Of a DNA stretch of 64,000 nt, positions 14,713 through 58,220 are shown piece after piece. The position numbers and the translations under genes were made by a program. Position 1 is the stretch's first letter. Every line of letters begins with the position of its first letter. The stretch comes from Caldisericales bacterium (lineage in GTDB: Bacteria; Caldisericota; Caldisericia; JAAYUI01): positions 12,243 through 76,242 of the forward strand of contig JAKIZT010000004.1 in the NCBI GenBank assembly GCA_022707885.1, written 5' to 3'. The notes beneath the pieces are model-generated. The model searched no databases. It had not been told where the DNA came from and saw nothing but the letters and a program-made list of their open reading frames with translations.

Positions 14713-15911
14713 ACCCTTGTAGACTCAGAAGAGATTTCACAGTCCTGGACAGGGAAAACCCGCCCATTTACCTCGACAACGCCTGCATGACACTAAAACC
14801 CAAACAGGTTGTCGATGCAATGACCACCTACTATGACGAGTACCCGGTTTGCGAGGGAAGATCGGCCCATGCAATGGCAATGAGGCTCGAGCAGGACATG
14901 CTCGCTTCAAGAAGGGCCATAAAAGATTACATCAAGGCAAACCACGTAAACGAGATTGTGTTCACGAGGAACACCTCCGAATCAATAAGCATAGTTTCGT
15001 ATGGTATAGACTGGAAACCTGGCGATATCGTGCTGGTTTCAGACAAGGAACACAATTCAAACTTTGTCCCATGGTTCAGGCTGAAAGAGTGGGGCGTAAA
15101 AGTTATTGTTGTGCCATCCGGAGATGATGGAAGGTTCTCGGTTGACAACTGGGCAAAGGCAATAAAAGAGTCAAAACCAAGACTCATAAGCTTCTATCAC
15201 ACCTCAAACCTCGATGGCGAAACCTCAAGGGTGGCCGAGGTGTGCAAGCTTGGGAAAGAGGCCGGTGCACTGGTCTGCCTTGATGCAGCACAGGGAGCGG
15301 CACATGTCCCGCTCAATGTTCAGGAAATTGGCTGCGATTTCATGGCCATTTCGATCCACAAGATGTGCGGGCCGACAGGCATGGGCGCACTCTATGGGAA
15401 GCTTGAAGAACTCAGGAAACTTAAACCACTGACAACTGGTGGTGGAACAGTATTTTCTGTGACATACGATGAAGTAAAACTGCTTGATCCTCCAAGAAAA
15501 TTTGAGGCAGGACTGCAAAATTATGCCGGCATTGTGGGTGTAAAACCTGCCATAGATTATATCGAATCAATAGGGCTCTCAAACATACACGAGCACGAAA
15601 TTGAACTAAACCAGCACCTGCAAAACCTTCTTGAGGGTATTCCACAAATAAAGATCCTTGGGCCAAAAGACGCCAAGGACAGAGGCGGAATAACAAGCAT
15701 GACGGTCGAAGGCTACAATGTTCACGATCTTGCCATGATCCTTGACGACAGGGTAGGAATAATGCTTAGGGCAGGTTTCCATTGTGTGCACGGCTGGTTC
15801 AACTCAAGGGGAATCGATGGCACATTGAGGGTCTCAACCTATCTCTACAACACAAAAGAGGAGATGGAGATATTTGCCAGCGCCATCAAAGAGATAATCG
15901 CGGAGGAATAA
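14700..15911 (+). CDS. Cysteine desulfurase (class-V aminotransferase, SufS/CsdA-like)
   Basis: 403 aa. The PLP-lysine region ISIHKMCGPTGMGALYG and overall SufS-like length. Confidence 0.85.
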   Translation: MSKIDPCRLRRDFTVLDRENPPIYLDNACMTLKPKQVVDAMTTYYDEYPVCEGRSAHAMAMRLEQDMLASRRAIKDYIKANHVNEIVFTRNTSESISIVSYGIDWKPGDIVLVSDKEHNSNFVPWFRLKEWGVKVIVVPSGDDGRFSVDNWAKAIKESKPRLISFYHTSNLDGETSRVAEVCKLGKEAGALVCLDAAQGAAHVPLNVQEIGCDFMAISIHKMCGPTGMGALYGKLEELRKLKPLTTGGGTVFSVTYDEVKLLDPPRKFEAGLQNYAGIVGVKPAIDYIESIGLSNIHEHEIELNQHLQNLLEGIPQIKILGPKDAKDRGGITSMTVEGYNVHDLAMILDDRVGIMLRAGFHCVHGWFNSRGIDGTLRVSTYLYNTKEEMEIFASAIKEIIAEE

Positions 15912-18900: not shown

Positions 18901-21900
18901 GAGCCCGGCAATAATAAAAGATGGAAGAACATTCGTCCCGATAAGATTTATTGGCGAGGCCTTTGGCGCCGATGTGAACTGGGACCAGAAAACAAAAACA
19001 GTCCTTGTAACACTGGATCTTGCAAAAGACAAACCGCTTATGGATGTAGATAAAAACAACATTGATATTCAGTGGCACGATGCAACACCAAACGCAATCC
19101 CGCCAAAAACAACAGTGACAATAGTAAACAAGGGCGGCGGAAAGATAATTTTCAAGGAACCCATTGATACCACAAGCACCATGAAAACAACACACGTTTC
19201 TGTCTCAAAAGAAAAAGTGATCCTTACCCCAATATTTGGAAGCGATCTACCTGTTGAAACAAGTGACACAGCAGTAGTTGTAACTTACAATGGAATTGTA
19301 GGATTAAATCTCAATGTTGGCATCTATCCAAAAGATTCGGTCCTCTTCTCATCAAAAGGAAACTTTTACAAAATCAACGGCTTTGAACAACAGGACCAGC
19401 CAAAGGTGCTCGATGGACTGGTCTCAACATCTATCCTCAAATTCATTTCCTCCTGTGGTGGATCAAGCATTTTTGATCCAACAAGCGGCAACCTTGCAGT
19501 AATTATGAGGGGTAAAACACTTGAGCTTGGCACAAAAACAGGTGACTTCTTCCTTGATGGCACCAAAATGCCATGGAAGTTCAGATATGAGGTAAAAGGC
19601 GAGGATGTTATCTTGCCTTGGGCTTGCCTTTCGCTTGCATTTGGCCTGGAAATAAATGAAAACTACGAGAGCGTCAGGGTCTGGCTCAAGAAAGAACCCC
19701 AGCCCCTTCTTTCACTCGACTGGCCAAGCATTGACCTTGTGAAGATGAACGACAAAAAGGTGGCAAAACCATTTGAGGCAAAGTTGTATCCAATAAGAGA
19801 GGGCGGTAAGTACAGTCTTCTCCAGGACCAGTCACCATACAAGCTTTTCTTCTTCTATTCCAACAACCAGGCATGTGCCAGAATGATACCATCCATTGAG
19901 AGCACCTTCAGAAGGTACAAGGACAAAGGTTTGTCCTGCTATCTTGTGTCAAACTCGATACCAACAGATTCTACAACAGAACAGTTTTTTGCAGGAAACA
20001 GGGACATAATGGAGGGACTCGATGCACTTTCAATAATTGGACTCACCCTGCCAATCATGTTTAATGAAAACGGCGAGATTTGTGAGGATTTCCCTGGCGA
20101 GTCAATTCCAAGACTATATATTATTAATTCCAAAGATGAGCTTGTCTTTGCCCTTCCTGATGTTAACCAGTCCCAGCTTATCTATCTTGAACAGGCTACA
20201 GCTTCTATTTTTGACAACCAGGGTGCCATCCCCCCGGATGTCCTGACAGTGAATGTCTCAAATAAAGGTGGCTCTGCTGGCCAGGGTTCAATAACATCGG
20301 ACTCACCACTGGTCAATGTTCTGACTGGCACTTTCAGGAGCTCACCTGCGCAGGTTTCATTGAGCTTTGATCCGTCAAAAGTGGAACTCAGGAACACGCC
20401 AAATTACACAACCGCAACAGCGACCCTGCTGGGGACAAGCAACCAGGTCGAGATTCCGGTCAGGTGCTGGAATGTTCCGCCTTTCACTGCTTTCTCAAGC
20501 TGGTATGGCGGTTCAAAAACAATAAGGATAAACGGCTCGAATATCAGCATACCTGTCGCTGCCACTGCAGGTGATGACCCGGTTGGACCAATAGGGTTGG
20601 TTGCAAAATCCATAGGCGCAGAAGTGAGAATCCTCTCCAACCAGACGGTCAGGTTTATTGCCGGGCAGAATGAAGCGACAATGTATATTGGGCAAAACTT
20701 CGCCGAATCTGGCGGATCAAAATTCGAGTTTGGCGGTAAATTCTCGATAGAATCAGGAGAAATATATGGCCCTGTAAAATTTCTGTCACAATTTGCAGGG
20801 GCAACCCTCCAGAGTTTTGACGGAACAATAGTTTTATGGGCACCAACAATAAAGGGAAGGGCAACAACCCCACTCCTCTCGGTTGATAAATCCAGTCTGA
20901 TGTTCAATTCATACATCCCGCCAGCAGGTGGTTTCAGGGCAGCACCGGATTTTGAACTCCCAAGCTACCCATACTCCTCGGGGACAAAAACAAAACTCTC
21001 CGAGCTCCTCAAAAAACCGGAAGTACAGGTTGTCATCATTGATTTCTGGGCAACATGGTGCCCACCATGCAAGTCCTCCATGCCCCACTTGGAGAAACTC
21101 TGGAGAAACTACAAAAACAAAGGTCTTGTTGTGCTTGGCGTCATAACCGACCAGGATGAAAAGACAGATGAAGACATTGAGGAAACTCTTACTGAGGATC
21201 CAAGAATCAAGGGTGGCTTAAAATCGCTTGGCCTGGACAAAATAACTTATCCGATGTGCTATGACATCAGGCCAGAACTCAAAACATTCCGCCTTTACGA
21301 AGGAAAAGCAATTCCAAGGCTTGTCGTCATTACAAAAGACATGAAGTGGGCATACACAAATGTGGGCTTCTGGGACCAGGGCGTAAGGAACCTTGAGTTC
21401 AAGGTAAGAAGACTTCTTGGAATTGAAGAAAGTGCAAAAATACCATCCCTCAGCCTTTCAAACATTGGCGTTGGAGAGCTCTCCGGAACAATAACAAGCT
21501 CTCTCCCGTACATAACACCAAAAAATACAAATTTCTCCACCACTGACTCCACTTCAATCGAATTTTCAATCAACACATGGACTGCACCGGTTTACCCAGA
21601 GACAGGGACAATAACCATAGAATCCAATGGTGGGAAATTTGTTTGCGATATTCAATACGATCCAGTTTTTGAAAACAAACCGCTGGAGCTAAAAATTAAC
21701 ACCACTGACAGCTCTCTTACGTTCAACAACCTGAAAACCAAGGTTTCTGTGCCCACAAAAACCTTTGGTGATAAATATCTGGTCGCGATCAATTCACTGC
21801 TCCCGGCACTTGGCGGATCAGCTTCGGTGCTTCCAGACAGAAAAAGGGCACTGGGTCAGTTCGAAACATGGCAGATAAGCGTCGAGCACAACAAAACGGC

Positions 21901-22057
21901 CATATCTGCAGGGCCATTCACTCTGAATGCACAGGCCCCGACAATCATTGAGGGTAGCAACATCTTTGTGGACTTTGAAACACTCTGCGACATAATCGGA
22001 GCAGAAGCATCTTTTGAAAACGAAAACAAAACACTGGTATTGAGGTATGAGATATGA
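15911..22057 (+). CDS. Giant secreted multidomain surface protein: N-terminal M28 Zn-aminopeptidase (with PA domain), Ig-like repeats, CuAO-N stalk repeats, two thioredoxin-like domains (one single-Cys, one canonical WCPPC) and a C-terminal CuAO-N-like domain
   Basis: Likely start MKRFASLTLAIIMLATLLPLAGQVQA (signal peptide) at 15911, overlapping the sufS stop. M28 motifs: ITAHYDHLGVD, ACDNASGVASMLEIARAF, TGEELGLVGASYMA. CuAO-N repeats: YVPYRFIGEPFGAKVEW and FVPIRFIGEAFGADVNWDQKTKTVLVTL. Canonical thioredoxin: VVIIDFWATWCPPCK...IPRLVVI. Degenerate thioredoxin: FFFYSNNQACARM...IPRLYII. Confidence 0.8.
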   Translation: MKRFASLTLAIIMLATLLPLAGQVQASDYSFAGLIEKITSEAPMKYIEKLSSKEFRGRMVGDPGEKITTDYIASLYKSFGLKPAGDDGTYFQNLTTSVFLPKSPVDFRMVTEDGGTEKQFVYKKDYNFLQVTGSGKANAEAIFAGFGISTQKYNYDDYKGIDVKGKIVAVIRHAPDYLRELAGQEADSLMAFQYKVDNAIAHGASAVIVFENPMLPPENRRNMNDKIVSAYPSSIPCFFVSVECSNQVLSKSGLTSEQLFKKINDSKSPSSFPIKNTRLQVEVNAEFNPAYKTSNVVGYIPASDPFGANETVLITAHYDHLGVDVDGTLYPGACDNASGVASMLEIARAFTDSGLKPKINICFAALTGEELGLVGASYMANNPPFPLDGMTVLNLDMVCGEPNRINLSMDANFTDLFDKLKFSGLKVGANVGQGRPANNNDSAAFYAKGVPSVFIFGGRGMMWHDPEDTIEHVNPDGLQLCTRFAALTACLYAEPFFLALDNQTFESPAPDYVVSGYTGRGARVTIGGRQTIASETGKFSIPVTLGEGKNDLKVTATKPSSGEKIEKTITVSYILQAKAELSTSMLNFGFVTQRSEPKTITFTVTNTGKGPLSGTLKPCSDWLEIKPAKLNPDKTTVEATLLPKWLTPKGFHVCMIQIETSGGMVFLPVTAVTGEEPTVELVMTPGSKRVKIQGDDVPVSQGFEVVSNANCYPSSVLSMSFGMLVKKDADGIKLTFNDEQYRLWTGSAVGLKGNVPFTLKKEVYENKDEVMLPESLLEIMGMGIEKKEGGQIVITYDISKVAPFSAEIFPPDFIELEQDTKYSKDFSWMTRQYFKFTPNRSGLLSYTIPEWLYLGNYYSKNYPVESGKTIEIWPFPNNALINQLKPKSGKIEFFINGHPVGSVEVKLKYANTKRIISIIIGSKTATIDGEEKEVSPPAFIENGTTYVPYRFIGEPFGAKVEWVQQTRSVRATIGTTTIELTINSKKAIINGVPTTLQSPAIIKDGRTFVPIRFIGEAFGADVNWDQKTKTVLVTLDLAKDKPLMDVDKNNIDIQWHDATPNAIPPKTTVTIVNKGGGKIIFKEPIDTTSTMKTTHVSVSKEKVILTPIFGSDLPVETSDTAVVVTYNGIVGLNLNVGIYPKDSVLFSSKGNFYKINGFEQQDQPKVLDGLVSTSILKFISSCGGSSIFDPTSGNLAVIMRGKTLELGTKTGDFFLDGTKMPWKFRYEVKGEDVILPWACLSLAFGLEINENYESVRVWLKKEPQPLLSLDWPSIDLVKMNDKKVAKPFEAKLYPIREGGKYSLLQDQSPYKLFFFYSNNQACARMIPSIESTFRRYKDKGLSCYLVSNSIPTDSTTEQFFAGNRDIMEGLDALSIIGLTLPIMFNENGEICEDFPGESIPRLYIINSKDELVFALPDVNQSQLIYLEQATASIFDNQGAIPPDVLTVNVSNKGGSAGQGSITSDSPLVNVLTGTFRSSPAQVSLSFDPSKVELRNTPNYTTATATLLGTSNQVEIPVRCWNVPPFTAFSSWYGGSKTIRINGSNISIPVAATAGDDPVGPIGLVAKSIGAEVRILSNQTVRFIAGQNEATMYIGQNFAESGGSKFEFGGKFSIESGEIYGPVKFLSQFAGATLQSFDGTIVLWAPTIKGRATTPLLSVDKSSLMFNSYIPPAGGFRAAPDFELPSYPYSSGTKTKLSELLKKPEVQVVIIDFWATWCPPCKSSMPHLEKLWRNYKNKGLVVLGVITDQDEKTDEDIEETLTEDPRIKGGLKSLGLDKITYPMCYDIRPELKTFRLYEGKAIPRLVVITKDMKWAYTNVGFWDQGVRNLEFKVRRLLGIEESAKIPSLSLSNIGVGELSGTITSSLPYITPKNTNFSTTDSTSIEFSINTWTAPVYPETGTITIESNGGKFVCDIQYDPVFENKPLELKINTTDSSLTFNNLKTKVSVPTKTFGDKYLVAINSLLPALGGSASVLPDRKRALGQFETWQISVEHNKTAISAGPFTLNAQAPTIIEGSNIFVDFETLCDIIGAEASFENENKTLVLRYEI

Positions 22058-27875: not shown

Positions 27876-27951
27876 TGGTGGAGATGAGGTGATTCGAACA
27901 CCCGACCCTCGCGTTGCAAACGCGATGCTCTGCCAGCTGAGCTACATCCCC
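27876..27951 (-). tRNA. tRNA-Ala (anticodon UGC)
   Basis: Reverse complement: GGGGATGTAGCTCAGCTGGCAGAGCATCGCGTTTGCAACGCGAGGGTCGGGTGTTCGAATCACCTCATCTCCACCA. Cloverleaf folds. G3:U70 Ala identity pair. Anticodon loop TTTGCAA. CCA encoded. Confidence 0.85.
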
Positions 27952-27968
27952 ACTTGCAAAGAGCTGCA

Positions 27969-28045
27969 TGGTGGGCCTCAGTGGACTCGAACCACTGACC
28001 TCGTCCTTATCAGGGACGCGCTCTAACCAACTGAGCTAGAGGCCC
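27969..28045 (-). tRNA. tRNA-Ile (anticodon GAU)
   Basis: Reverse complement: GGGCCTCTAGCTCAGTTGGTTAGAGCGCGTCCCTGATAAGGACGAGGTCAGTGGTTCGAGTCCACTGAGGCCCACCA. Anticodon loop CTGATAA. CCA encoded. Confidence 0.85.
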
Positions 28046-28114
28046 AACAATTCGGTTAGTATAATGTCACCAAATACCATGTCAAGGGTGGAAAACCAGT
28101 AGAACTATTGTTCC

Positions 28115-28142
28115 TTGACTTTCGTTTGGGCACTGTTATAAA
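28115..28142 (+). promoter_or_regulatory. Putative promoter for tRNA-Ala(GGC): TTGACT, 16 nt spacer, TATAAA
   Basis: TTGACT at 28115-28120 and TATAAA at 28137-28142, 11 nt before the mature tRNA 5' end. Confidence 0.4.
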
Positions 28143-28153
28143 TATCCAATCGT

Positions 28154-28229
28154 GGGCCTGTGGCGCAGCTGGAAGCGCGTCTGCATGGCATGCAGAAGGT
28201 CAGGAGTTCGAATCTCCTCAGGTCCACCA
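28154..28229 (+). tRNA. tRNA-Ala (anticodon GGC)
   Basis: GGGCCTGTGGCGCAGCTGGAAGCGCGTCTGCATGGCATGCAGAAGGTCAGGAGTTCGAATCTCCTCAGGTCCACCA. G3:U70 pair. Anticodon loop ATGGCAT. CCA encoded. Confidence 0.85.
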
Positions 28230-47148: not shown

Positions 47149-48354
47149 TTGGAAACAATATTTGCCCAGGCAACTGCTCCGGTACCACAAGCAGTCGGAA
47201 TAATAAGGATCTCCGGAGACAATGCTTTTGCTATAGCAGAAAAGATCATTCCCGCTGGACTCCCTGACGCCGGCAAGTTCGGCTTCAGGGATGTCGCTAG
47301 CGAAGACGGTGAGAAATTTGATTCTGGGGTTGTGCTGGTATTTAAATCACCCAATTCATTCACCGGTGAGGATGTCGTGGAAATACAAGTTCACGGCAGC
47401 CAGGCAGTTATCAATAAAATCCTTTTCATGCTTGGCAAATTGGGTGCAAGACAAGCCAAACCTGGTGAATTCTCAATGAGGGCCTTTATGAATGGAAAGG
47501 CTGGCCTTGCCGATCTTGAGCTTGCCAATGCCCTCACCAGCTCCACGGATGCCTCAAAAGGACTCCGGCCTCAGCTCGAAGAAATAAGGAACGACCTTCT
47601 CTTTATCATCTCATCTCTGGAAGCCTCCATCAGTTTTCCAAACGATGTCGGCGACGAAGATTCCATAAAAAAACAAACTACAAATCTTTTATTCAAGATA
47701 AAATCCCTGCTTGGCTCATGTTCAAAACCCGGTTTGCCAAGAGTTGTCCTCGCAGGGCCTCAAAATGCAGGCAAATCAACACTTTTTAATTTTATCCTTG
47801 GTTTTGAAAGAACAGTTACATCAGACATTGCAGGCACAACAAGAGATTGGGTGCCACAGACAACAAAGATTGCCGGCAGAACAGTTGAGCTTGTGGACGG
47901 ACCAGGCCTGGACGCTTCTCCAGATACTGGGCAGTCATCTTTCAGGAAATTATTTGATTCGGCCGACTGCATCGTCTGGCTCGATCCTGCCGCAGTGAAG
48001 CCAGAATTTGCTGATGGAAGATTTTTGATGGTGCAGTCACAATCTGATAAGGAAGGGTTTCCAGCCCAGCAAGGCTGGCTCCGTGTGTCAGGCAAATATG
48101 GTTTAGGGACAGACGAACTTTATAAAAAGATACTGCAAGTACTCGGTCAAAAGCCCTTTGCTGCAACAGAAAGGCAGATATCGCTTCTTGCTTCCCTTGA
48201 GAATTCAGTTACATCAGCGCTTGAATGCCAGACCGATGATGCGATGGCCTTTGAGCTCTCATCAGTTTTTCAGATGGTGTCCGAGCTTGACGGCATCGGG
48301 GCATCACAGGAAGTCCTTGAATCAATTTTTTCCAGTTTTTGTATCGGAAAATGA
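47149..48354 (+). CDS. mnmE: tRNA modification GTPase MnmE
   Basis: N-terminal THF-binding region GIIRISG, G-domain GPQNAGKSTLFN, and the C-terminal CIGK tetrapeptide. Confidence 0.85.
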   Translation: METIFAQATAPVPQAVGIIRISGDNAFAIAEKIIPAGLPDAGKFGFRDVASEDGEKFDSGVVLVFKSPNSFTGEDVVEIQVHGSQAVINKILFMLGKLGARQAKPGEFSMRAFMNGKAGLADLELANALTSSTDASKGLRPQLEEIRNDLLFIISSLEASISFPNDVGDEDSIKKQTTNLLFKIKSLLGSCSKPGLPRVVLAGPQNAGKSTLFNFILGFERTVTSDIAGTTRDWVPQTTKIAGRTVELVDGPGLDASPDTGQSSFRKLFDSADCIVWLDPAAVKPEFADGRFLMVQSQSDKEGFPAQQGWLRVSGKYGLGTDELYKKILQVLGQKPFAATERQISLLASLENSVTSALECQTDDAMAFELSSVFQMVSELDGIGASQEVLESIFSSFCIGK

Positions 48355-49347
48355 CCGGCTCGCATAAAAACCATTAGGGAGCTTTATTACAAATCCCTTT
48401 ATATCAAGAACTGTGATTATCCCAAGCAATGCCTCTGCATTGAGGCCAGTTTTGTCACATATTTCATCGATCCTGCACGGTACCATGCAAGCCAGCAGAA
48501 CAGCCTTTTCTGTTTCGCTTAAAGATTCATCAGCATATAAGGTTGTCTTTCCGTACAAAGACAGTACATCTGAAGGTGAATCCACAAGCAAGGCGCCATC
48601 TTTGATGAGCCTGTTGCAACCCTCAAAATTCTGCATGCCAGGAAGCCCGGGGCAGGCCAGCACATACCTGCCCAAATCCAGTGCATCTTTAGCTGTTATC
48701 AGTGCACCAGATGATTTCGGGGCCTCAACAACAAGACAAGCTTTTGAAAGAGCGGCGATTATTCTGTTTCGCCATGGGAAAGTCCATCTGTCACCTGGAA
48801 AATTGGGTGGAAACTCCGAAACAATGGCGCCTTTTACTGAAATCCTCTTTTTGAGCTCCCTTTGAGTCGCGCTTTTGGCCTGGTTTATCCCACAACCAAG
48901 AACAGCAATTGTTGGTTTATCAGCATCAAGGGCACCCCAATGTGAAGCTGAATCGATCCCGTCTGCCATTCCGGAGACCACAACAATCCCTGTTTTTGAA
49001 AACTCAAAAGCCATGTTCCTGGCAATCCCTGTTCCATGTGGCGAGGCCTTTCTTGTCCCCACCATCGCAACAAGGTCCAGGGTTTCAGGGAGCCCACCAA
49101 AAACAAAGAGTGCCGCTGGTGGGCACTCTAGGTCAAAAAGTTTTTTTGGGTATTTCTCGTCATCCTGGCAAACAAATTCGATGCCTGATGACTCGATTTC
49201 AGAAAGACCGGTATTTATGGCTGTCTCGATCTCATGCTTGCCAAAGTCTTTCAGTATTTCCTCAGGTCCCCTCTCTTTCAACTTCCCCAGGGCCTGCGGC
49301 TTCAAGGCAAGCAAATAAGAGACGGCCAGCCAGTAGTTCCGGTCCAC
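48322..49347 (-). CDS. dprA: DNA-processing protein DprA (Smf)
   Basis: Rossmann-like DprA core GTRKASPHGTGIARNMAFEFSKTGIVVVSGMADGIDSASHWGAL...VVEAPKSSGALITAKDALDLGRYVLACPG. Confidence 0.85.
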   Translation of the reverse strand: MDRNYWLAVSYLLALKPQALGKLKERGPEEILKDFGKHEIETAINTGLSEIESSGIEFVCQDDEKYPKKLFDLECPPAALFVFGGLPETLDLVAMVGTRKASPHGTGIARNMAFEFSKTGIVVVSGMADGIDSASHWGALDADKPTIAVLGCGINQAKSATQRELKKRISVKGAIVSEFPPNFPGDRWTFPWRNRIIAALSKACLVVEAPKSSGALITAKDALDLGRYVLACPGLPGMQNFEGCNRLIKDGALLVDSPSDVLSLYGKTTLYADESLSETEKAVLLACMVPCRIDEICDKTGLNAEALLGIITVLDIKGFVIKLPNGFYASRSFSDTKTGKN

Positions 49348-49626
49348 TTAAAGTTTTTTCTGATAGTTGTATGCTAGAACGGCAAGGCCAGTGAACAGCA
49401 ACATGGTGCCAAAGAGCGCCACAACCCATTGCTGGAGGCCATTATATTTCAGGAGTGGCTTGAGACTTGATGCAAGCCCTACTTTGTCTATTCTTGCGGC
49501 ACTCTGCATGCCATCAACCAGCTCGAGCGTCATTATCGCAAGAAAACAGCCAAGTGCAATAAGAACAAGCAGCACCATTACTGCGGTTATTTTCTCTTGC
49601 TTCATTTTTTCTCCTTTGAGAGCCAC
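49348..49626 (-). CDS. Small membrane protein (2 TM), last gene of the Rieske/cyt b/Flx-like operon
   Basis: 92 aa with two hydrophobic helices. Immediately follows the next small ORF and abuts dprA. Confidence 0.4.
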   Translation of the reverse strand: MALKGEKMKQEKITAVMVLLVLIALGCFLAIMTLELVDGMQSAARIDKVGLASSLKPLLKYNGLQQWVVALFGTMLLFTGLAVLAYNYQKKL

Positions 49627-49859
49627 TTGTCAAACAGCTTTACTCTTTTGACTACCTTTCCCCTGTTGTCTTCTGAAGCGTACATTCCAAAAACCAGAAG
49701 AAACATCATGGCCAAAAAGATGAGACCAAAAGCAACAAGCTGGACAAAACCGAATGGACCCAGTTCTCCCAGTACCTTTGCTGTCTGGACGAGCTGTGCA
49801 AGCGAAAGCACTCCAACCAGCAAGGCAAGGATAAAAATCAGGGTCCATTCATTTTTCAC
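49602..49859 (-). CDS. Small membrane protein (2 TM) in the Rieske/cyt b/Flx-like operon
   Basis: 85 aa with two hydrophobic helices and a basic C-terminus. Overlaps the cytochrome b gene by 4 nt. Confidence 0.4.
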   Translation of the reverse strand: MKNEWTLIFILALLVGVLSLAQLVQTAKVLGELGPFGFVQLVAFGLIFLAMMFLLVFGMYASEDNRGKVVKRVKLFDKWLSKEKK

Positions 49860-51328
49860 AGACTTTTTACTCCAAGCGCAAGGGCCTTTTCAGCTCTTTT
49901 TTTTAAGACCCTTCTCCTCCATATATATTCAAGGAAGAAGGCAAGAGCGAACACAAAACCATTGAAAAGGAGTATGGTGTATATGTATATGTTCCTGTCG
50001 GCATCCTTGAATGGTATCCAGTAAGACACCAGAGAGCCTATGAGGAAGAAGGTGAGGCCACCAATTGCAAGTGTTGTATAGGCTGGCCTTCCAGAGGCAT
50101 TTCGTTGCTCCCTCCTGTCAATCCAAGGAAGAGCAACAAGGAACACAATAAATAACACCGTCAGTAATGGCCCGATGGCACCAGGCAAGAACTTGAGATA
50201 GAAGTAGACAAACAGGAAGTACCAGTCTGGCAAGATGTGGTCAGGCGTCTTGACTGTGTTTGGTGGTGGCTCGCTGATTGCAGGCAAATACAATATTGCA
50301 CCAATTATAACAATCGCCAGTATCGCAAACATGACCCAGTTGAGTTTCGGGCGTTTCTTCCTCGACCTGATAAAATATAACTCGGCCGCGAGGAACATGG
50401 CGATCGGCAACAGGTAGTGCAATATATTGAATCTCAGGATTGTTGTCTGGCCAACCTGATGGGCGCCGAGGCCAATAAATTTGAGCGCAGCACCCAAACC
50501 CAAAGGACCAATTCCGGGCAAAAGATCAACTGTGTCAAGCATCTGCGTTCCAACCGTTGTTGCCCAGTAAGATCTCTGGTCAAACGGGAGAAGGTAACCG
50601 GTTACGCCAGAGAATGTTGAAATACAGACAACCAGTGTTGCAATTATCCAGGTCAATTCTCCGGGTTTTTTGAATTCTCCATTGAAATACATCCTGAGCC
50701 AGCGAAGCATGAGCAATGCTATGAAGCAATAAGCACCATACCTGTGTATTCCCCTTATCGTTCTGGTTACTGGGTTGCCCGAGATGTCCGCAACAGATAT
50801 GTACGCTTTTGATACGATGACTCCAAGGTCAGCAACAATTTCCTCCGGGGTTTTGCCTTCCATGGCCAGTATGTCCTTGCGCTGGCTGGTTATCGTTGCC
50901 CACTTGGTATCAACAAGAGCTTTTTCTTCATCTGTAGTAAGGGCAGCTTTTTCTTCATCACGCTGTGTTATTTCTTCCTGCGTGAGGAGCTCGTCCTCTG
51001 TCATCTCGCCAGCATCGATTTTTACTCTGAATTCCTCTGCTTCCTTCATTGCCCCTTCAATGGTAAGGCCATGTCCATACATGACTTTTGAAGGATCAAC
51101 TTTCTCAACAGGCGAGGTATCCGGAACATAATAGAATGTGAGCACGATGCCAACAACCACCTGAAGGATGAGGAGGATGTAGAGCATACCACCAATCCAG
51201 TAAAACGGATTTGATTTTTTCTTTTTTGGTGTTTCTTCATCAAAGATATTGACCTTGAGGCCTCTTATCTTCCACCATCTCATCCATGATTTTGTCAAGC
51301 CGTCAAGCCAGTTTGCAAATTTGTCCAT
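49856..51328 (-). CDS. Cytochrome b (full length, b6 plus subunit-IV regions) with a roughly 110-aa acidic insertion after helix A and apparently only one His-His heme-ligand pair
   Basis: Cyt b helix A NPFYWIGGMLYILLILQVVVGIVLTFYYVP. Helix B RGIHRYGAYCFIALLMLRWLRMYF has His at the first ligand position but Arg at +14. Helix D ILHYLLPIAMFLAAELYF has His at the first position but Tyr at +14. C-terminal PDWYFLFVYFYLKFLP (the PEWY-like motif). Insertion sequence EEFRVKIDAGEMTEDELLTQEEITQRDEEKAALTTDEEKAL. Confidence 0.7.
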   Translation of the reverse strand: MDKFANWLDGLTKSWMRWWKIRGLKVNIFDEETPKKKKSNPFYWIGGMLYILLILQVVVGIVLTFYYVPDTSPVEKVDPSKVMYGHGLTIEGAMKEAEEFRVKIDAGEMTEDELLTQEEITQRDEEKAALTTDEEKALVDTKWATITSQRKDILAMEGKTPEEIVADLGVIVSKAYISVADISGNPVTRTIRGIHRYGAYCFIALLMLRWLRMYFNGEFKKPGELTWIIATLVVCISTFSGVTGYLLPFDQRSYWATTVGTQMLDTVDLLPGIGPLGLGAALKFIGLGAHQVGQTTILRFNILHYLLPIAMFLAAELYFIRSRKKRPKLNWVMFAILAIVIIGAILYLPAISEPPPNTVKTPDHILPDWYFLFVYFYLKFLPGAIGPLLTVLFIVFLVALPWIDRREQRNASGRPAYTTLAIGGLTFFLIGSLVSYWIPFKDADRNIYIYTILLFNGFVFALAFFLEYIWRRRVLKKRAEKALALGVKSL

Positions 51329-51337
51329 TCTGGCCTC

Positions 51338-52186
51338 CTAAAAAGCCGCCGGCATTGCGGCGATCTGGGCTGATGTGAACACCGGGCCGTCCTGGCAGAC
51401 GTAGTTGTGTCCAACATTGCATCTTCCACATTTTCCGCAACCGCAGTTCATTCTGGCCTCAAGAGAAGCAAAAATCTTGTCTTTCGGGAACCCTATCTTG
51501 TCCAGACCAATGAGGGTGAACTTGATCATCACTGGCGGACCTGATATGACAATTGCAGTGTTTTTGAAGCCTGGGTCAATTTCAAACAGCAACCTCGACC
51601 TGTTTTTGAAGTTTGGATCATAATACTGTCCGACAACACCAACATCTTCTTTCCATGTGCTGTCACCCTTGTCGCATGATCTCTTTACCTCAACGTCTTT
51701 TACTTTTGCCCACTCGAAAATCTTGTTTTTGAAGACTTGGTCGGCAGGTGTTTTCGCACCATAGAGTATTTCTATCTTGCCGTAATCAGATCTCTTGTCG
51801 AGGGAATAGGTGAGCATGTTGCTTATGGCCGAGAAACCCACACCTCCGGCCATATAACTTATGTTCATGCCTTTGAGCGCATCCTTCGGGAAGCCGTTTC
51901 CATAGGGCCCCCTCAAAGTGACCCTGTCTCCAACCTTCATCCCATGGAGCTTCTCAGTCACCGCGCCAACTTTCATGATGGTCAGCTCAAGGTGTTCCCT
52001 CTTTGTTGGGGTGTTGCCAATGGATATCGAGCAGTCGCCAACACCAGGAACTCCAATTATGCAGAACTGGCCAGGATTATAGTCAAAATTCCCGCCATCC
52101 CTTTTGATGTAGAAAGTTTTGATATTTGGCGTTTCCTGTTCGATTTTTTCAATTGTGGCCATCTCTGGCAGATACGGGTTCGTCAC
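51338..52186 (-). CDS. FAD/NAD(P)-binding oxidoreductase with C-terminal [2Fe-2S] cluster (sulfhydrogenase gamma HydG / FlxA / AsrB-like)
   Basis: The probable GTG start (52186..52184; RBS GGGAGGT) gives MTNPYLPEMATIEKIEQETPNIKTFYIK. FNR-like FAD and NAD folds. C-terminal CGCGKCGRCNVGHNYVCQDGPVF (2Fe-2S). GTGA overlap with the upstream gene. Confidence 0.7.
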   Translation of the reverse strand: MTNPYLPEMATIEKIEQETPNIKTFYIKRDGGNFDYNPGQFCIIGVPGVGDCSISIGNTPTKREHLELTIMKVGAVTEKLHGMKVGDRVTLRGPYGNGFPKDALKGMNISYMAGGVGFSAISNMLTYSLDKRSDYGKIEILYGAKTPADQVFKNKIFEWAKVKDVEVKRSCDKGDSTWKEDVGVVGQYYDPNFKNRSRLLFEIDPGFKNTAIVISGPPVMIKFTLIGLDKIGFPKDKIFASLEARMNCGCGKCGRCNVGHNYVCQDGPVFTSAQIAAMPAAF

Positions 52187-53214
52187 AGCGCACCTCCCAG
52201 GGTCTTTAGTGTTTCTGAAAGCGAGATCCCTGACGGACAAAGATCAGAACACCTTCCGCATCCAGTGCAGGCAATCTCTCCATAGAGTGTCATGTGGTAT
52301 TGGTACTTGTCGAGAATTTTGTTTCTATAACGTGCGGCAACATCGGGTCTTGGGTTGTGGCCAGATGCCTCAAGCGAATAGACTGTGAAATGGCAGGAAT
52401 CCCAGCACTTGTCCCTGTCGCAGGAGACAGCACCAGTTTTGCGGTCTCTCATTTCAAAACAATGGCAAGTTGGGCAGAAGAACGTGCACACACCACAGGA
52501 GATGCAACCCTGACTCACTTTCTGCCAGATCGGGGACTCATAGAGTTTCATGTACTGGCCAGCTTTTGAAGTGTCCAGTTTGAAAATCATCATCGACTCA
52601 CAGGCCTTTTTGACTTTTTCCTGGGCTGCCTTGGCATCCCCGCCATCTTCGAACATGGATTTATTGGCCTCTATGAAAGCTTTTCCTTTTTCAGTCGAAA
52701 CAACAAGCTGGTATGAGTCACCTTCCGGAACCAGGAGAATGTCAGAGCCAGCTTCAGAAGCCGGGTGAATTCCAAGAGACGAGCAGGCGCATGTTGAGAG
52801 CGGTTTTTCGCAGGCAATTGCAATGATTAGCGTTTTGTCTCTCTTTTCTTTCCAGTATGGGTCCTCAAATGGTTGTTTGCCACCATCCTTGCGGTCTCTT
52901 GCAAGGAAGAAATTGTCCAGTACCTGGATGCCCCTGGCATCACATGGCCTGACCCCAAAAAGGATGGCCGGTTTTGAGGCATCTGCCTGATGAACCTTGT
53001 CGCTTTCTACTTTATATATCAATTCAGTTTGTGGAAAAACCGCTTCTTTGGCTGGTGTTGCAGTCCTTACAGTTTTGAGGTCAATAGATTTTATATCCTC
53101 AACCTTTTTGAAATTTGTGACTGCACCATTCTTTTGCGGGGCATAAACAACATGGGTTTTTCTTGATTCATCAATCAGGGAGAGCATTTTTTCTTTTTTG
53201 ATTTTCATGTTCAC
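52183..53214 (-). CDS. Fe-S subunit of the sulfhydrogenase-beta / AsrA / FlxB family
   Basis: GVRPCDARG N-terminal motif, CISCGVCTFFCPTCHCFEMRD and CTGCGRCSDLCPSG 4Fe-4S motifs. 343 aa. Start overlaps the upstream stop. Confidence 0.7.
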   Translation of the reverse strand: MNMKIKKEKMLSLIDESRKTHVVYAPQKNGAVTNFKKVEDIKSIDLKTVRTATPAKEAVFPQTELIYKVESDKVHQADASKPAILFGVRPCDARGIQVLDNFFLARDRKDGGKQPFEDPYWKEKRDKTLIIAIACEKPLSTCACSSLGIHPASEAGSDILLVPEGDSYQLVVSTEKGKAFIEANKSMFEDGGDAKAAQEKVKKACESMMIFKLDTSKAGQYMKLYESPIWQKVSQGCISCGVCTFFCPTCHCFEMRDRKTGAVSCDRDKCWDSCHFTVYSLEASGHNPRPDVAARYRNKILDKYQYHMTLYGEIACTGCGRCSDLCPSGISLSETLKTLGGAL

Positions 53215-54200
53215 CTCCCCAACACTTCTTCAACTTTATACAGGGCCAGTGGCGTTTTTGCCTTGTCACTGGTGCCTGGTTCAAAGTCCCAGGTTGTTTT
53301 TGTCATATAGCCAAGCTGCTCTGTTATGAGATTGAGCGGGATGCTTTCCGGGCAAGCCCTTGCACATTCACCACAATTTGTGCATCTGTCGGAGAGGTGG
53401 AAGTAGTGGATAAAGTGGTATGTCAGGATCGAGGCAAGGGAAGTTCCCTTTTGAAGATAGGGCTCAGGGAGCTTCGGATAGTCCATGATGCAGTTTGTGT
53501 TGCAGTAGCAACCCGGGCAGGCATCTCTGCAAGCAAAACACATTGTGCACCTTGAAAGCTGGGAGATAATGTATGCCCTGCGCTCCTCGAAAGGCTTCTG
53601 CAGGTATGACTCCATCCACTTTTCCCAGTTTTTGGTAGGTTTTTTCGGCATGTCATCAGGAAGTAACTCGTCAACCTCGAGTGCTGATGTATACGGGCAG
53701 CGTAAGCACCTTGGATCGTAATAATCCGATTTTACCAGATCAGCTTTCTTGCCGTCGAGCATTTCTACATGCAGTGTTGTTCCATCATCAGTGATATTTT
53801 TGATGTCAGAATCAAGACCCGACCTGACAAGATCAATGTCGATAGTGCCAGGGCACTTTACACCAATAACCCAGAGATTGTCCCTGTCAACTTTATTTTC
53901 TGCTACGTTGGCAAGAAGGTTTCTGGAATCACAGCCTTTGACCATGACACCAAACTTCTGCCCCTTCTTTAGTTCAGGTATATAAAATGTTTTTCCACCA
54001 AGGAGTCTTGAAAGGTTCTCTCTTGAAAAGGAATTGAAAACCAGGAGATCTACCTCTTCTGGGGTAGTGGCAACAAATGCCCTGGTTTTTCCAGGCATGT
54101 CAGCGACTTCCCTCCAGCCAAGGAAACCGGCAATTTTTCCTGATTTTATGGCTTCTTTTACGATTTTCCTGAAGTAGGCGAGGGTTTTTTCTGTCATCAT
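53211..54200 (-). CDS. Second HydB/FlxC-like Fe-S subunit (paralogous architecture)
   Basis: GVMVKGCDSRNL (cf. GVRPCDA), CTMCFACRDACPGCYCNTNC (cf. CPTCHCF) and CTNCGECARACPES motifs. 4-nt overlaps with both neighbours. Confidence 0.6.
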   Translation of the reverse strand: MMTEKTLAYFRKIVKEAIKSGKIAGFLGWREVADMPGKTRAFVATTPEEVDLLVFNSFSRENLSRLLGGKTFYIPELKKGQKFGVMVKGCDSRNLLANVAENKVDRDNLWVIGVKCPGTIDIDLVRSGLDSDIKNITDDGTTLHVEMLDGKKADLVKSDYYDPRCLRCPYTSALEVDELLPDDMPKKPTKNWEKWMESYLQKPFEERRAYIISQLSRCTMCFACRDACPGCYCNTNCIMDYPKLPEPYLQKGTSLASILTYHFIHYFHLSDRCTNCGECARACPESIPLNLITEQLGYMTKTTWDFEPGTSDKAKTPLALYKVEEVLGR

Positions 54201-54604
54201 GCTTCCACCCCCATACTATCAAGTTTGCGCTTCATTGCAGAAATCTCTCTTGTCAAAACACCATAATCGAGGGGATCTTTCTGGACGTAGGAGAGCCTTT
54301 CTGGGTCAACACCAAGCGCTTCTGCAACCGACTGTGCTGCAAAAACCCTGCGTTTTGCAAACATGTTTCCATCAAAATTGTGGCAATCGTTGAGAGGACA
54401 ACCATAGATGATGATTGCTCCAACACCCTCCACCAAAGCCTTAAAGGCAACAACAGGATTGAGCCTACCTGTGCAAGAAAGCTTTACAAAGCCAACTTCA
54501 GGAAACTTGTCTTTGTGGTTTTCAAGGTCTTTGCCCTTCAGGGCTGATTCACAATGGAAAACGATTATTTTTCTTTTGATCGGGAGATCTTCTATTGAAG
54601 GCAT
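54197..54604 (-). CDS. Methyl-viologen-reducing hydrogenase delta subunit-like protein (MvhD/FlxD family, [2Fe-2S])
   Basis: 135 aa. KIIVFHCES...KLSCTGRLNP...IIIYGCPLNDCHNFDGNMFAKRRV matches the MvhD/FlpD pattern (C..C...C.P..DCH...GN). Confidence 0.75.
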   Translation of the reverse strand: MPSIEDLPIKRKIIVFHCESALKGKDLENHKDKFPEVGFVKLSCTGRLNPVVAFKALVEGVGAIIIYGCPLNDCHNFDGNMFAKRRVFAAQSVAEALGVDPERLSYVQKDPLDYGVLTREISAMKRKLDSMGVEA

Positions 54605-55656
54605 AAGCCCTTTACCTCCTCGAGTATGACTTTGTTCTCAAAACCTTCCAGGTCAATGACCTGCGGCAGACAGCCAGCAACACAGATTCCACAAGCCTGG
54701 CATTTTTTTCTTACAACAAAAGCAACGTCTTTTGTCTTGTTTCTGGATATATTGAATTTCTTTTGTGTTATCGCGTTCTTCGGGCAAAGTGTAATGCAGG
54801 TGAAACACCCGGAACAACGGACAGGGTCAACAACGGCGGCTGTTTTAATCTTCCTGCCAAAAAATGGCAGTGCAATCAGAACTGCGATGAGGAACCCCCA
54901 GGCACTTGCCGCAATGGTGGGACTGCCAAGTCGTATTGTGAATAGTCCTATCCAGTCGAAAACATATTTTCCAGCCTTGAGATCTGTTTTGCCAGCGATT
55001 GGGAACAGGCCGACAATCACGGCAAGAACTCCAAGGAAAATTAATGAGAGGGCAAACGTTGGGATAACTGGCGGTCTGGAAATCCTGGCAAAATGCCATA
55101 CAAGAAGAGCGAAGACGAGGATTGGAGCTCCAATATGGAACGCCCTGTAAATAACAAGCAGGGCAACCTCCGTTATCTGGCCTCTTCCAAAGAATTTGAG
55201 TATTTCAGACGCCCTTCCATCCATCGGGAGGATGTAGCCTGTTATGGTTATGAGTACTGTGAACACCAGCAGTGCGACACCGACAAACCACCCCACAGAC
55301 CTGGTGCTTGTGTGTCTTTGGGCAAAAAGCTTCCTGAGCATGTGCGCTGCTGCAAAAAGAATCATTGCATCAGCGGCATACCTGTGAAGCGTCCTTATGA
55401 AAAGGCCATAAGGTATTTTGTCCGACATGATGTACATGATTGATTTTTGGGCCTGGTCCAGAGATGGCATATAGAAAAAGCTCAGGACAAAACCTGTCAG
55501 TATCTGGATGAACAACAAAAGGAAGGTTATCGAGCCAAGACTATTGAGAATATTGACCGATTCAAAACCCGCCTTCAGGACATCAAAGATTCCCAATGTC
55601 CCGTTTATGAGAAAATTCAACGGCTTAAAAGGACTATAGGATTTGCTTGGGCTCAT
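54592..55656 (-). CDS. Cytochrome b6-like membrane protein fused to a C-terminal 2x[4Fe-4S] ferredoxin domain
   Basis: Helix A FIQILTGFVLSFFYMPS. Helix B TLHRYAADAMILFAAAHMLRKLF (His, His +14). Helix D AFHIGAPILVFALLVWHF (His, His +14). C-terminal CSGCFTCITLCP ... CQACGICVAGCLP. Start taken at MSPSK (ATGA overlap with the Rieske stop). Confidence 0.7.
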   Translation of the reverse strand: MSPSKSYSPFKPLNFLINGTLGIFDVLKAGFESVNILNSLGSITFLLLFIQILTGFVLSFFYMPSLDQAQKSIMYIMSDKIPYGLFIRTLHRYAADAMILFAAAHMLRKLFAQRHTSTRSVGWFVGVALLVFTVLITITGYILPMDGRASEILKFFGRGQITEVALLVIYRAFHIGAPILVFALLVWHFARISRPPVIPTFALSLIFLGVLAVIVGLFPIAGKTDLKAGKYVFDWIGLFTIRLGSPTIAASAWGFLIAVLIALPFFGRKIKTAAVVDPVRCSGCFTCITLCPKNAITQKKFNISRNKTKDVAFVVRKKCQACGICVAGCLPQVIDLEGFENKVILEEVKGLCLQ

Positions 55657-55658
55657 AG

Positions 55659-56216
55659 TCACACCTTTTCCACTGTTATTGCACCAGAACCTTGATCCCA
55701 TTCCACTTTCCATGGTTTAAGGGCTGATGGAGGCGGGCCTGCAATGACATTTGCAGTTACCGGGTCAAAGAAACCGTCATGACAACGACAGTGCCAGTTG
55801 TTCGAAACCGAATCCCAGTAAATGACACATGCAAGATGGGTGCATTTTGCATCCCAGGCGTGGAGTTTGCCTTCCTTGTCCTTGATCAATACTCCTGGGT
55901 TGCTGATTTTTACTGGTTTGGTTGGAATCGAAGTGTCGACAGTAACAATTTCAAATGAATAGCCAAGCATTTCTTTCATCGAGTTGTAATTAGCTTCAAC
56001 ATCCGTAAAGCTTGTCCCACCACCAGCAAGCATTGGCTCTCTCATGCTCGAGAGAACAACTCTCGCAACAGATGGTGGTGGAATTGCCAGACCAAGTTTG
56101 CCAAAAGGCTTCAACAACCTTAGCACTGGTGAAATCGCCCCTGCGAGCAAGCCCAGGAGCGGCAAGCCTAGAAGGACCTTGAGCAATTCTCGTCTTGTAA
56201 CCTCTTTTTGACTCAC
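55659..56216 (-). CDS. Rieske [2Fe-2S] protein with twin-arginine (Tat) signal
   Basis: Box I CTHLAC and box II CRCHDG. TRRELLKVLLGLPLLGLLAGA Tat signal. The likely GTG start at 56216 (RBS GGAGGA 4 nt upstream) places the RR near the N-terminus. The ORF track ATG 56243 has no RBS. Confidence 0.8.
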   Translation of the reverse strand: MSQKEVTRRELLKVLLGLPLLGLLAGAISPVLRLLKPFGKLGLAIPPPSVARVVLSSMREPMLAGGGTSFTDVEANYNSMKEMLGYSFEIVTVDTSIPTKPVKISNPGVLIKDKEGKLHAWDAKCTHLACVIYWDSVSNNWHCRCHDGFFDPVTANVIAGPPPSALKPWKVEWDQGSGAITVEKV

Positions 56217-56530
56217 GCTGTCCTCCGAATTGAGAATTTGCATGGACTCAAAGTTAATACGACAATTTGTTTAAGTCAAATTAGAGTTTATTTAATGATG
56301 CATTCAAAACAACACTGGTTTTTTGATGACTTCATAATTAAAGGTTAAAAAGTTCGGTTAAGAGATGTTTTTTACAATAATTTGTCAATAACAAAGAAAA
56401 CCAATTTCCAATACAATTTCTTAAACTACCCTAAAATATGAAAAGAAAACCATGTTTTTATGCAAAGAATGAAATCTTGTTAAATACCACATTTAATTGT
56501 GGGTATGAGAAATGATTTCAGATTTGAGAA

Positions 56531-56575
56531 AAACAAAAAACCGGGGACTAAAAAAAGTCCCCGGTTTTTTGTTCC
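56531..56575. terminator. Bidirectional rho-independent terminator downstream of groEL
   Basis: AAAAAACCGGGGACT-AAAAAAA-GTCCCCGGTTTTTT: perfect 9-bp GC-rich stem flanked by an A-run and a T-run. Confidence 0.85.
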
Positions 56576-56588
56576 AAACTTGTCAGAA

Positions 56589-58220
<1,632 letters not shown>

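Follow-up and report, generated by a model that had tools for sequence, protein, structure and literature searches.

How does a Rieske/cytochrome b complex dispose of its electrons when no cytochrome c is encoded with it, and when its genes are interleaved with those of a chain of iron-sulfur and flavoproteins ending at an NAD(P) site? The question is raised by a 64-kb stretch of DNA from Caldisericia (phylum Caldisericota), the whole of which is called the window here, where nine tightly packed open reading frames (ORFs) occupy positions 49348-56243 of the minus strand (numbered 1 to 9 in operon order, the Rieske gene being gene 1). The answer proposed here, which we hold at slightly less than even confidence, is that the nine genes encode a single Rieske/cytochrome b membrane complex, whose low-potential branch would leave via Fe-S clusters towards an NAD(P)-binding flavoprotein, and not via a Qi site. 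The genes follow each other at distances of +2, -13, -4, +2, -4, +9, -4 and -4 nt, and the ORFs coincide with the public gene calls on six contigs carrying the identical locus, which is present in the metagenome-assembled genome GCA_035352135.1 and in several large JGI and ENA metagenome contigs. A preliminary description of this DNA had already recognised nine packed minus-strand genes with close to this spacing. Searches with Pfam and NCBIfam profiles found Rieske, Cytochrome_B (twice), Cytochrom_B_C, a Fer4 dicluster, FlpD, Fer4_22 (HydB/ShyB/AsrA-like) and FAD_binding_6/NAD_binding_1/DHODB_Fe-S_bind among the nine ORFs, and the domain families named in that description held in the profile and structure-sequence searches (gene 3 as FlpD, gene 5 as 9nez_B and gene 6 as 9nez_C). 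Its statement that no cytochrome c is encoded with the operon also stands, since no genuine CxxCH cytochrome c protein is encoded either in the operon or anywhere in the 64-kb window. Three features go beyond it and carry much of what follows: both ligands of heme bH are missing from gene 7, gene 2 has a ferredoxin domain that appears to be derived from HdrA, and gene 4 is FlxC/FdhB-like.

Gene 7 (49856..51328, minus strand) encodes an eight-helix cytochrome b with N- and C-terminal domains, which was aligned to the cytochrome b6 of C. reinhardtii. It retains the heme bL ligands (H195 and H304) and a Qo motif, PDWY (50219-50230), and the positions of the bH ligands His100 and His202 of the C. 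reinhardtii protein are taken by Arg209 (50702-50704) and Tyr318 (50375-50377), respectively. This H-R-H-Y/F signature is present in all 20 Caldisericia homologues (59-99% identity), as well as in the divergent copy of contig L016 and in the copy of L009, which is from another organism; in the operon-linked relatives of gene 7 the helix B His is replaced by Arg and the helix D His by Tyr or Phe, with P/SDWY kept, and the other 31 cytochrome b matches keep four His, save a single one in which Asp occupies the helix D site. A profile search of 1.84e9 representatives returned 3182 cytochrome b relatives, only 20 of them with E <= 1e-30. Among the 150 matches listed, 115 have four His, and the helix-B Arg (Lys in one case) is confined to the top ~19 and three lower matches, so it marks a small clade of about 20 representative clusters. 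Members of related bH-less clusters are named Holophagaceae (Acidobacteriota) and Armatimonadota at NCBI. When metagenomes were scanned with a profile of the bH-less cytochrome b, its generic patterns retrieved mostly ordinary Rieske/cytochrome b loci, and the bH-less type only in contigs L098, L105 and L117.

The other half of the quinol-oxidising site would be provided by gene 1 (55659..56243, minus strand), which encodes a Rieske [2Fe-2S] protein of 194 aa (Pfam Rieske, E 8e-9, and the NCBIfam models of b6f/bc1 Rieske proteins). An alternative GTG start at 56216, which is the end coordinate given in the preliminary description, would shorten it to 185 aa. The N-terminus has a Tat motif (TRRELLK) and one transmembrane (TM) helix, the cluster boxes read CTHLAC and CRCHDGFF, with the disulfide cysteines included, the best Protein Data Bank (PDB) matches are b6f Rieske proteins, and the predicted topology places the Rieske domain in the periplasm.

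The second cytochrome b of the operon is of a very different make. Gene 2 (54592..55656, minus strand; Pfam and NCBIfam) joins a cytochrome b part of six TM helices, A to F (residues 1-266, 54859..55656), to a ferredoxin part with 2x[4Fe-4S] (residues 267-354, 54592..54858), the latter predicted to be cytoplasmic by the topology analysis and having a K/R-rich tail. Its four heme-ligand histidines (H91, H105, H174 and H188) and the eight cluster cysteines are invariant in an alignment of 22 diverse homologues, down to 25% identity, and the AF2 model of the protein (pLDDT 79, pTM 0.76) superposes on bc1 cytochrome b over ~280 columns in Foldseek. As a sequence reading, little in it resembles a Qi site: the CxGG cysteine of heme cn is absent (WIGG / SLGS), the stretch after the bH His reads HxxRISRP throughout the family, apparently without the His that bc1 has at +5, and, as far as the sequences can be read, canonical Qi residues are seen in neither of the two cytochromes b. 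FDWI stands in gene 2 where PEWY aligns. In the family as a whole the fifth and sixth helices are kept, together with a nearly invariant Asp-Trp ('xDW[IFL]') exactly at the aligned PEWY Qo position, which may be a remnant of a p-side quinone site or an altered form of it.

It is the ferredoxin part of gene 2 that ties the membrane core to the world of heterodisulfide reductases. Residues 267-354 match the C-terminal ferredoxin domain of HdrA (PDB 5odc_A, residues 551-649, E 1.3e-8) and show 31-35% identity to the C-terminal 75-80 residues of the HdrA whose genes directly precede flxD in contigs L093 and L094, so that the domain is, by all appearances, HdrA-derived. Because this fused domain matches the HdrA C-terminus, the cytochrome b would sit in the usual place of the HdrA flavoprotein. 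The gene order tells the same: hdr-flx clusters have hdrA as the gene directly before flpD/flxD, as if here a cytochrome b had replaced the flavoprotein core of HdrA and only the piece of HdrA next to MvhD/FlxD had been retained.

That neighbour, gene 3 (54197..54604, minus strand), encodes an MvhD/FlxD-like [2Fe-2S] connector (Pfam FlpD, E 1e-20; NCBIfam HdrA2 C-terminus/VhuD) with four conserved cysteines (Cys18, 44, 69 and 74), and is 35-37% identical, over less than its full length, to FlpD of hdr-flx clusters. It is followed on the same strand by gene 4 (53211..54200), an FlxC-like Fe-S protein with 15 Cys and a relative of the FdhB/FrhB family, whose best match in the PDB (7bkb_E, E 3e-19) is the FdhB of formate dehydrogenase-Hdr supercomplexes; by gene 5 (52183..53208), an FlxB/HydB-like Fe-S protein with 18 Cys and a Fer4_22 domain (NCBIfam ShyB/HydB/AsrA); and by gene 6 (51338..52186), an FlxA/HydG-like protein with predicted FAD, NAD(P) and [2Fe-2S] binding (Pfam FAD_binding_6, NAD_binding_1 and DHODB_Fe-S_bind). 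Over their full lengths, these three are 29-30%, 31-37% and 39-40% identical to the proteins in the FlxC, FlxB and FlxA positions, respectively. The nearest homologues of gene 4 outside the Caldisericota (P0165, P0172 and P0164, with ~30% identity) sit between flpD and a HydB-like gene in hdr-flx clusters, and the order in contigs L093, L094 and L095 is hdrBC-like (CCG), hdrA, flpD, the gene 4 homologue, a Fer4_22 protein, and a protein with NAD_binding_1 and DHODB_Fe-S_bind. This layout reads as hdrCBA-flxDCBA, and since genes 3 to 6 share its D-C-B-A order, they appear to form an FlxD-C-B-A module. The label 'Flx-like' of the preliminary description is thereby supported by domains, by synteny with hdr-flx clusters and by 29-40% identity, and of the two proteins that it called HydB/AsrA-like, gene 5 is indeed HydB-like, gene 4 being FlxC/FdhB-like instead.

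Could the HydB/HydG-like pair belong to sulfur metabolism instead? Sulfur respiration is known from Caldisericum exile, and the pair might be a module of the sulfur or sulfite reductase type (sulfhydrogenase beta-gamma or AsrAB), in which case the operon would be a quinol-linked reductase of sulfur compounds. The closest solved structures are in fact the beta and gamma subunits of P. furiosus sulfhydrogenase I (9nez_B for gene 5, E 9e-47; 9nez_C for gene 6, E 1e-48), and there is NCBIfam similarity to ShyB/HydB/AsrA and HydG/AsrB, although below threshold, with 172-222 bits where the equivalog cut-offs of the sulfhydrogenase and Asr models are 289-750. The operon and the part of the window covered by Pfam-annotated gene calls (~15-64 kb, the CxxCH check having covered all 64 kb) contain genes neither for hydrogenase alpha/delta subunits nor for the siroheme protein AsrC; moreover, C. 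exile is absent from the 80 best genome loci, and the closest relatives by synteny are the Flx modules of Hdr clusters. A sulfhydrogenase or Asr identity of genes 5 and 6 was rejected on the sub-threshold scores and the absent catalytic partner, and a sulfur-linked function of the operon is considered very improbable.

If the nine products do work as one complex, the path of the electrons can be sketched. Menaquinol would be oxidised at a Qo site made by gene 7, with its PDWY motif, and the Rieske protein; the first electron would pass to the Rieske cluster and on to a periplasmic acceptor encoded outside the operon, and the second one to bL, the single heme of gene 7. As gene 7 has no heme bH, this second electron would then cross to heme bL' of gene 2, as over the bL-bL bridge of the bc1 dimer, and continue through bH', the HdrA-type 2x[4Fe-4S] domain, the [2Fe-2S] cluster of MvhD/FlxD, the clusters of FlxC and FlxB, and the [2Fe-2S]/FAD of FlxA, to reach NAD(P)+. 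The net result would be a quinone-based electron bifurcation yielding NAD(P)H, reversible in principle. It is known that bc1 dimers pass electrons between their two bL hemes and, since a Qo cytochrome b with only bL has no electron outlet without a partner, a heterodimer of genes 7 and 2 would be the simplest wiring. We infer in this way the assembly of all nine products and a cytochrome b core that is a heterodimer, and likewise the direction of flow, the substrate quinone, the bifurcation, the involvement of ferredoxin and the partner of the Rieske protein. Put in its most specific form, and more tentatively than the existence of a single complex, the proposal is that of a natural heterodimeric cytochrome b, in which a single-heme, Qo-only subunit would hand electrons (bL to bL') to a two-heme, Qi-less subunit, and this one to an HdrA-derived ferredoxin domain, MvhD and an Flx flavoprotein. 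Bifurcation at Qo would thus make NAD(P)H directly (or another low-potential reductant in the relatives linked to cbb3 oxidases described below) without a Q cycle, in a hybrid of the Rieske/cytochrome b and the Hdr/Flx bifurcation machineries.

Is the arrangement more than a chance juxtaposition? The whole operon, with the same gene order, is found in four species-representative genomes (L011-L013 and L016), and two further contigs ending inside the operon (L014 and L015) carry its first two genes. L016 represents a divergent clade, with an eight-gene form of the operon and a cytochrome b-Fer4 protein only 39% identical, and the conservation of the gene order across the Caldisericota genomes, this one included, shows that the arrangement is not due to chance. 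The linkage of the modules across the lineage, which the preliminary description named as a test, was thus seen in every Caldisericota locus spanning the region, and among the loci examined the full form is confined to this phylum.

A reduced form is not. Six other metagenomic contigs (L009, L096, L097, L098, L105 and L117, the last one ending after the cytochrome b gene) carry a core set composed of the Rieske protein, the bH-less cytochrome b, the small proteins, cytochrome b-Fer4 and FlpD. There, the core set adjoins genes for a cbb3 oxidase and/or mono- or diheme cytochromes c, and has no Flx genes. Loci with both the oxidase (CcoN/CcoO/FixS) and cytochrome c, in which the bH-less cytochrome b has SDWY, are L009:3019-10548, L096:4592-12433 and L097:5278-13597, as well as L098 and L105. 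Because of these adjoining genes, the high-potential branch is complete in the core-set relatives, from the Rieske protein via cytochrome c and cbb3 to O2, and their low-potential branch ends at MvhD. The Caldisericota differ from them in adding FlxC, FlxB and FlxA after MvhD and in lacking a neighbouring cytochrome c or oxidase.

This distribution also bears on whether there is one enzyme or two. The operon could encode two co-transcribed but separate enzymes, a bc-like quinol oxidase (Rieske protein, gene 7 and the small proteins) and an NAD(P)H:quinone oxidoreductase (cytochrome b-Fer4, MvhD and FlxCBA), communicating only through the quinone pool. Cytochrome b-Fer4-FlpD occurs without Rieske or gene 7 homologues in >70 loci of other phyla, which indicates that it can be an autonomous unit, and the sixth helix of gene 2 with the conserved xDW at the PEWY position could be a quinone site of its own. 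Gene 7, on the contrary, has neither bH ligands nor a recognisable path to a Qi site, and an electron on its bL would be stranded without a partner. A bH-less and Qi-less cytochrome b bearing a Qo site could not turn over alone, and this fits its co-occurrence with cytochrome b-Fer4 in every locus long enough to show it: in L009, L096, L097, L098, L105 and the Caldisericota, it is always preceded by the Rieske gene, and then come one or two small membrane ORFs, cytochrome b-Fer4 and FlpD (a statement covering the loci with enough downstream sequence to read), so that every bH-less cytochrome b with a readable downstream context has cytochrome b-Fer4 and FlpD after it. Furthermore, the genes of the two supposed enzymes interleave, the Rieske gene being the first of the operon but its cytochrome b the seventh. 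Two enzymes sharing nothing but quinone are therefore regarded as improbable.

The cytochrome b-Fer4 proteins themselves reach much further, with at least 481 relatives among the GTDB species representatives. In Proteobacteria, Gemmatimonadota, Myxococcota and other phyla, cytochrome b, Fer4 and FlpD/MvhD form one polypeptide of ~520 aa (P0019-P0034), and for one such fusion AF2 gave a compact and confident model (pLDDT 86.7, pTM 0.85). The existence of this single polypeptide in many phyla lends indirect support to a physical coupling through MvhD in the operon. The fusion loci (L007:9001-10557, and L017-L090) show six TM helices and 4 His, in many cases together with a further domain or ORF of ~170 aa, and the fusions are publicly annotated only as 'hydrogenase iron-sulfur subunit'. 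Nearly all of the inspected loci outside the Caldisericota adjoin one or two genes of the heme-copper oxidase family (COX1); L007 also has COX2-like, SCO1/SenC, UbiA and CtaA genes, and L010 has SCO1/SenC and an Rrf2 regulator. In their arrangement these loci are similar to the sNOR (norSY-senC) clusters known from ammonia oxidisers (PMC3772326). A second fusion found in the same clusters, of ~640 aa, comprises a cytochrome b, a [2Fe-2S] domain (Fer2), FAD_binding_6 and NAD_binding_1 (L007:12503-14434, and also L018, L020, L026, L029, L054, L080 and others), and would be an FNR-like NAD(P)H module placed directly on a bc-type cytochrome b. Yet another combination is seen in L170:502-5419 and L108:2-4565, with cytochrome b6, subunit IV (PEWY), a Rieske protein, a 639-aa fusion of NarI/HdrE-like, Fer4 and CCG (HdrD-like) parts, and an FrhB/FdhB-like Fe-S protein of 356-363 aa, which looks like a different way to join a Rieske/cytochrome b core to Hdr-type modules.

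In which direction would the electrons run? The wiring itself seems well supported, the direction of flow less so. With the same wiring, NAD(P)H could donate electrons to FlxA and these could pass via FlxB/C, MvhD and Fer4 to bH', bL', bL, and the Qo quinone and the Rieske protein, making the complex an NAD(P)H dehydrogenase that feeds the quinone pool and/or exports electrons to an acceptor in the periplasm or outside the cell; in a tightly coupled form it would be confurcating, NAD(P)H and a weak periplasmic donor reducing quinone together. We regard this reversal, the main alternative, as somewhat unlikely, yet several observations weigh against net NAD(P)+ reduction and on the side of the opposite flow. 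The membrane potential works against electrons that move from the p-side to the n-side, and favours the flow from the n-side to the p-side. The organism comes from anaerobic digesters, a habitat that weighs on net NAD(P)+ reduction, and as a fermentative organism it would need sinks of NAD(P)H more than sources. The Ser and Tyr of box II raise the redox potential of bc1 Rieske proteins, and without them the CRCHDGFF box of gene 1 (CxCHDGxF in 3/3 of the Caldisericota Rieske sequences examined) would argue against the strongly oxidising Rieske protein that NAD(P)+ reduction needs, and fit better the opposite direction. The proteobacterial cytochrome b-Fer4-FlpD units, which have no Rieske protein, adjoin heme-copper oxidase genes and the cytochrome b-[2Fe-2S]-FAD-NAD(P) fusions, which most plausibly carry electrons outward from NAD(P)H, the only sensible flow there being from NAD(P)H via cytochrome b to the oxidase; by analogy, they hint at the opposite direction here as well. 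FlxABCD, too, is described as an NADH dehydrogenase module (Ramos et al., as cited in the accessible part of PMC7382037). Finally, no acceptor for the Rieske protein (cytochrome c, oxidase or periplasmic reductase) was found in the operon or the window. The opposite direction would need a periplasmic partner too, and none is found there for it either. Besides, the reduction of quinone on the p-side with electrons from the cytoplasm dissipates proton-motive force, and for this reason a plain NAD(P)H:quinone reductase of this kind would be wasteful. The hallmarks of quinol oxidation with bifurcation, namely a Qo motif, a Rieske protein and heme bL, are all retained.

The remaining parts of the operon are less telling. 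Gene 7 has an acidic insert, predicted to be periplasmic, between helix A and the ab helix (residues ~64-185, 50774-51139), which ranges from 100 to ~300 residues in different Caldisericia, the whole proteins having 458-694 aa; the L016 and L009 types do without it. Where the insert begins, 12 sequences share an invariant His86 and Met94, and no cofactor motif was found in it. In L004:13277-14748 (JGI Ga0116249_10000460), the gene calls divide the orthologue of gene 7 into two ORFs of 297 and 180 aa, which is probably a frameshift or an assembly error and not a natural split of the b6/subunit IV kind. According to the ORF calls and the TM analysis, genes 8 (49602..49859, minus strand) and 9 (49348..49605, minus strand) encode small membrane proteins of 85 aa with two TM helices each, the first one without Cys or His, and one or two small membrane ORFs hold the same position in the cbb3-linked relatives.

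The surroundings of the operon are of the housekeeping type (groES/EL, dprA, mnmE, jag, yidC, rnpA, rpmH, PPDK, dnaG, rpoD and uvrD), with dprA directly abutting gene 9 at the downstream end. No other respiratory genes were found in the wider neighbourhood, within the annotated part of the window, nor were the hdrA core, hdrB or hdrC found in the operon or in that part. The upstream intergenic region (56244..56588, minus strand) contains, on the groEL side, a hairpin and T-run just after groEL (~56525-56572, read by eye as the terminator of groEL), and then an AT-rich leader of ~280 nt with promoter-like hexamers, extending to the Rieske gene. A promoter and terminator scan of 48200-56800 gave counts within shuffle expectation, and no leader RNA was detected, Rfam having matched only three tRNAs in the whole window (27879-28226, two minus-strand genes and one plus-strand gene). 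Elsewhere in the window (15782-22057, plus strand), there is a very large ORF of ~2050-2090 aa with PA, peptidase M28, Cu_amine_oxidN1 and several thioredoxin/AhpC-like domains, according to the gene call of L091.

If the proposal were true, what would follow? The many cytochrome b-Fer4-MvhD genes whose annotation now reads no more than 'hydrogenase iron-sulfur subunit' or 'cytochrome b N-terminal domain protein' would gain a function, and the reconstruction of the energy metabolism of Caldisericota in anaerobic digesters would change. In any case, the operon offers a concrete and testable architecture for a quinone-based bifurcation feeding a cytoplasmic redox chain. Whether Rieske/cytochrome b complexes may use the bifurcation at Qo to make NAD(P)H, rather than for a Q cycle, has so far been asked only for anammox bacteria, on the basis of models. 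Kuenenia stuttgartiensis encodes, in Kuste4569-4574 and in Kustd1480-1485, Rieske/cytochrome b complexes that include an NAD(P) oxidoreductase as a subunit (Kartal et al. 2013; Hauser et al. 2025, PMC12954380), and for two anammox Rieske/cytochrome b complexes a quinol bifurcation making NAD(P)H has been proposed but remains unproven (PMC12954380). Compared by their description in the latter source, these complexes share with the operon a Rieske/cytochrome b core encoded with a cytoplasmic FAD/NAD(P)/Fe-S module, and the proposed bifurcation of quinol towards NAD(P)H, biochemically unproven in both. Only the anammox complexes have a four-His cytochrome b of the b6 type with heme cn, a 5-helix subunit IV and hexa- or octaheme cytochromes c, and electrons are proposed to leave them by an additional heme b where the two halves of the homodimer meet. 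The operon, unlike them, has two different cytochromes b (one bH-less and the other carrying a ferredoxin domain of the HdrA type), MvhD as a connector and an Flx module made up of four subunits, and no cytochrome c. It would be a second, independent and structurally more explicit case, in which bH is lost from the Qo cytochrome b, the partner bears the HdrA ferredoxin domain and a complete FlxDCBA chain leads to the NAD(P) site. It would work like an NAD(P)-linked Rieske/cytochrome b complex, yet it lacks several features that characterise the canonical and the anammox ones: a four-His Qo cytochrome b, a c-type cytochrome and a recognisable Qi site or heme cn.

The other obvious reference is the NADH dehydrogenase/heterodisulfide reductase FlxABCD-HdrABC found in anaerobes (Ramos et al. 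2015; called 'Flox-Hdr' in PMC7382037). The D-C-B-A order and the protein families are the same, the identity to hdrCBA-flxDCBA proteins is 29-40%, and the Fer4 part corresponds to the C-terminal domain of HdrA. The HdrA flavoprotein core and HdrB/C, with their CCG domains, are in turn absent from the operon, which has a membrane cytochrome b in the place of HdrA; what by its sequence is a genuine FlxDCBA module is present here without HdrABC. Because of this replacement, any bifurcation would be quinone-based at Qo and not flavin-based at HdrA, and the two bifurcation systems, if the proposal holds, would be linked by shared parts. That cytochrome b genes are often neighbours of oxidoreductase genes was noted by Dibrova et al. 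2017, in general terms only. No prior description of the nine-gene arrangement, of bH-less cytochromes b paired with cytochrome b-ferredoxin fusions, or of the cbb3-linked relatives was found in the literature searched, in agreement with the earlier suspicion of an undescribed respiratory architecture. The cbb3-linked core clusters (L009, L096, L097, L098 and L105), which to our knowledge are undescribed, resemble the operon in their five or six core genes, in the His to Arg change of helix B, in S/PDWY and in the one or two small membrane proteins; they lie beside a cbb3 oxidase and a (di)heme cytochrome c and have no FlxCBA, and the Caldisericota are the reverse.

With respect to the classical bc1 and b6f complexes, the likeness resides in the Tat-anchored Rieske protein with its CxHxxC...CxCH boxes, in the PDWY Qo motif, in the heme bL ligands and in the cytochrome b fold (the gene 2 model matching bc1 in Foldseek, and gene 7 matching b6 and bc1 in sequence). 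The operon departs from them in having no c1/f subunit, in having two non-identical cytochromes b, the Qo-bearing one without bH ligands, and in that the canonical Qi residues and the heme cn cysteine can be read in neither of them. A precedent for the proposed electron path is an artificial one: Swierczek and colleagues in 2010 and Lanciano and colleagues in 2011 reportedly engineered heterodimeric bc1 complexes in which electrons cross between the bL hemes of the cytochrome b dimer, forming a bL-bL 'bus bar'. Those are artificial mutants of a homodimer, whereas here the labour would be divided naturally between two cytochrome b genes and, if this proves true, the transfer from bL to bL between monomers, so far drawn from engineered bc1, would be put to use in nature.

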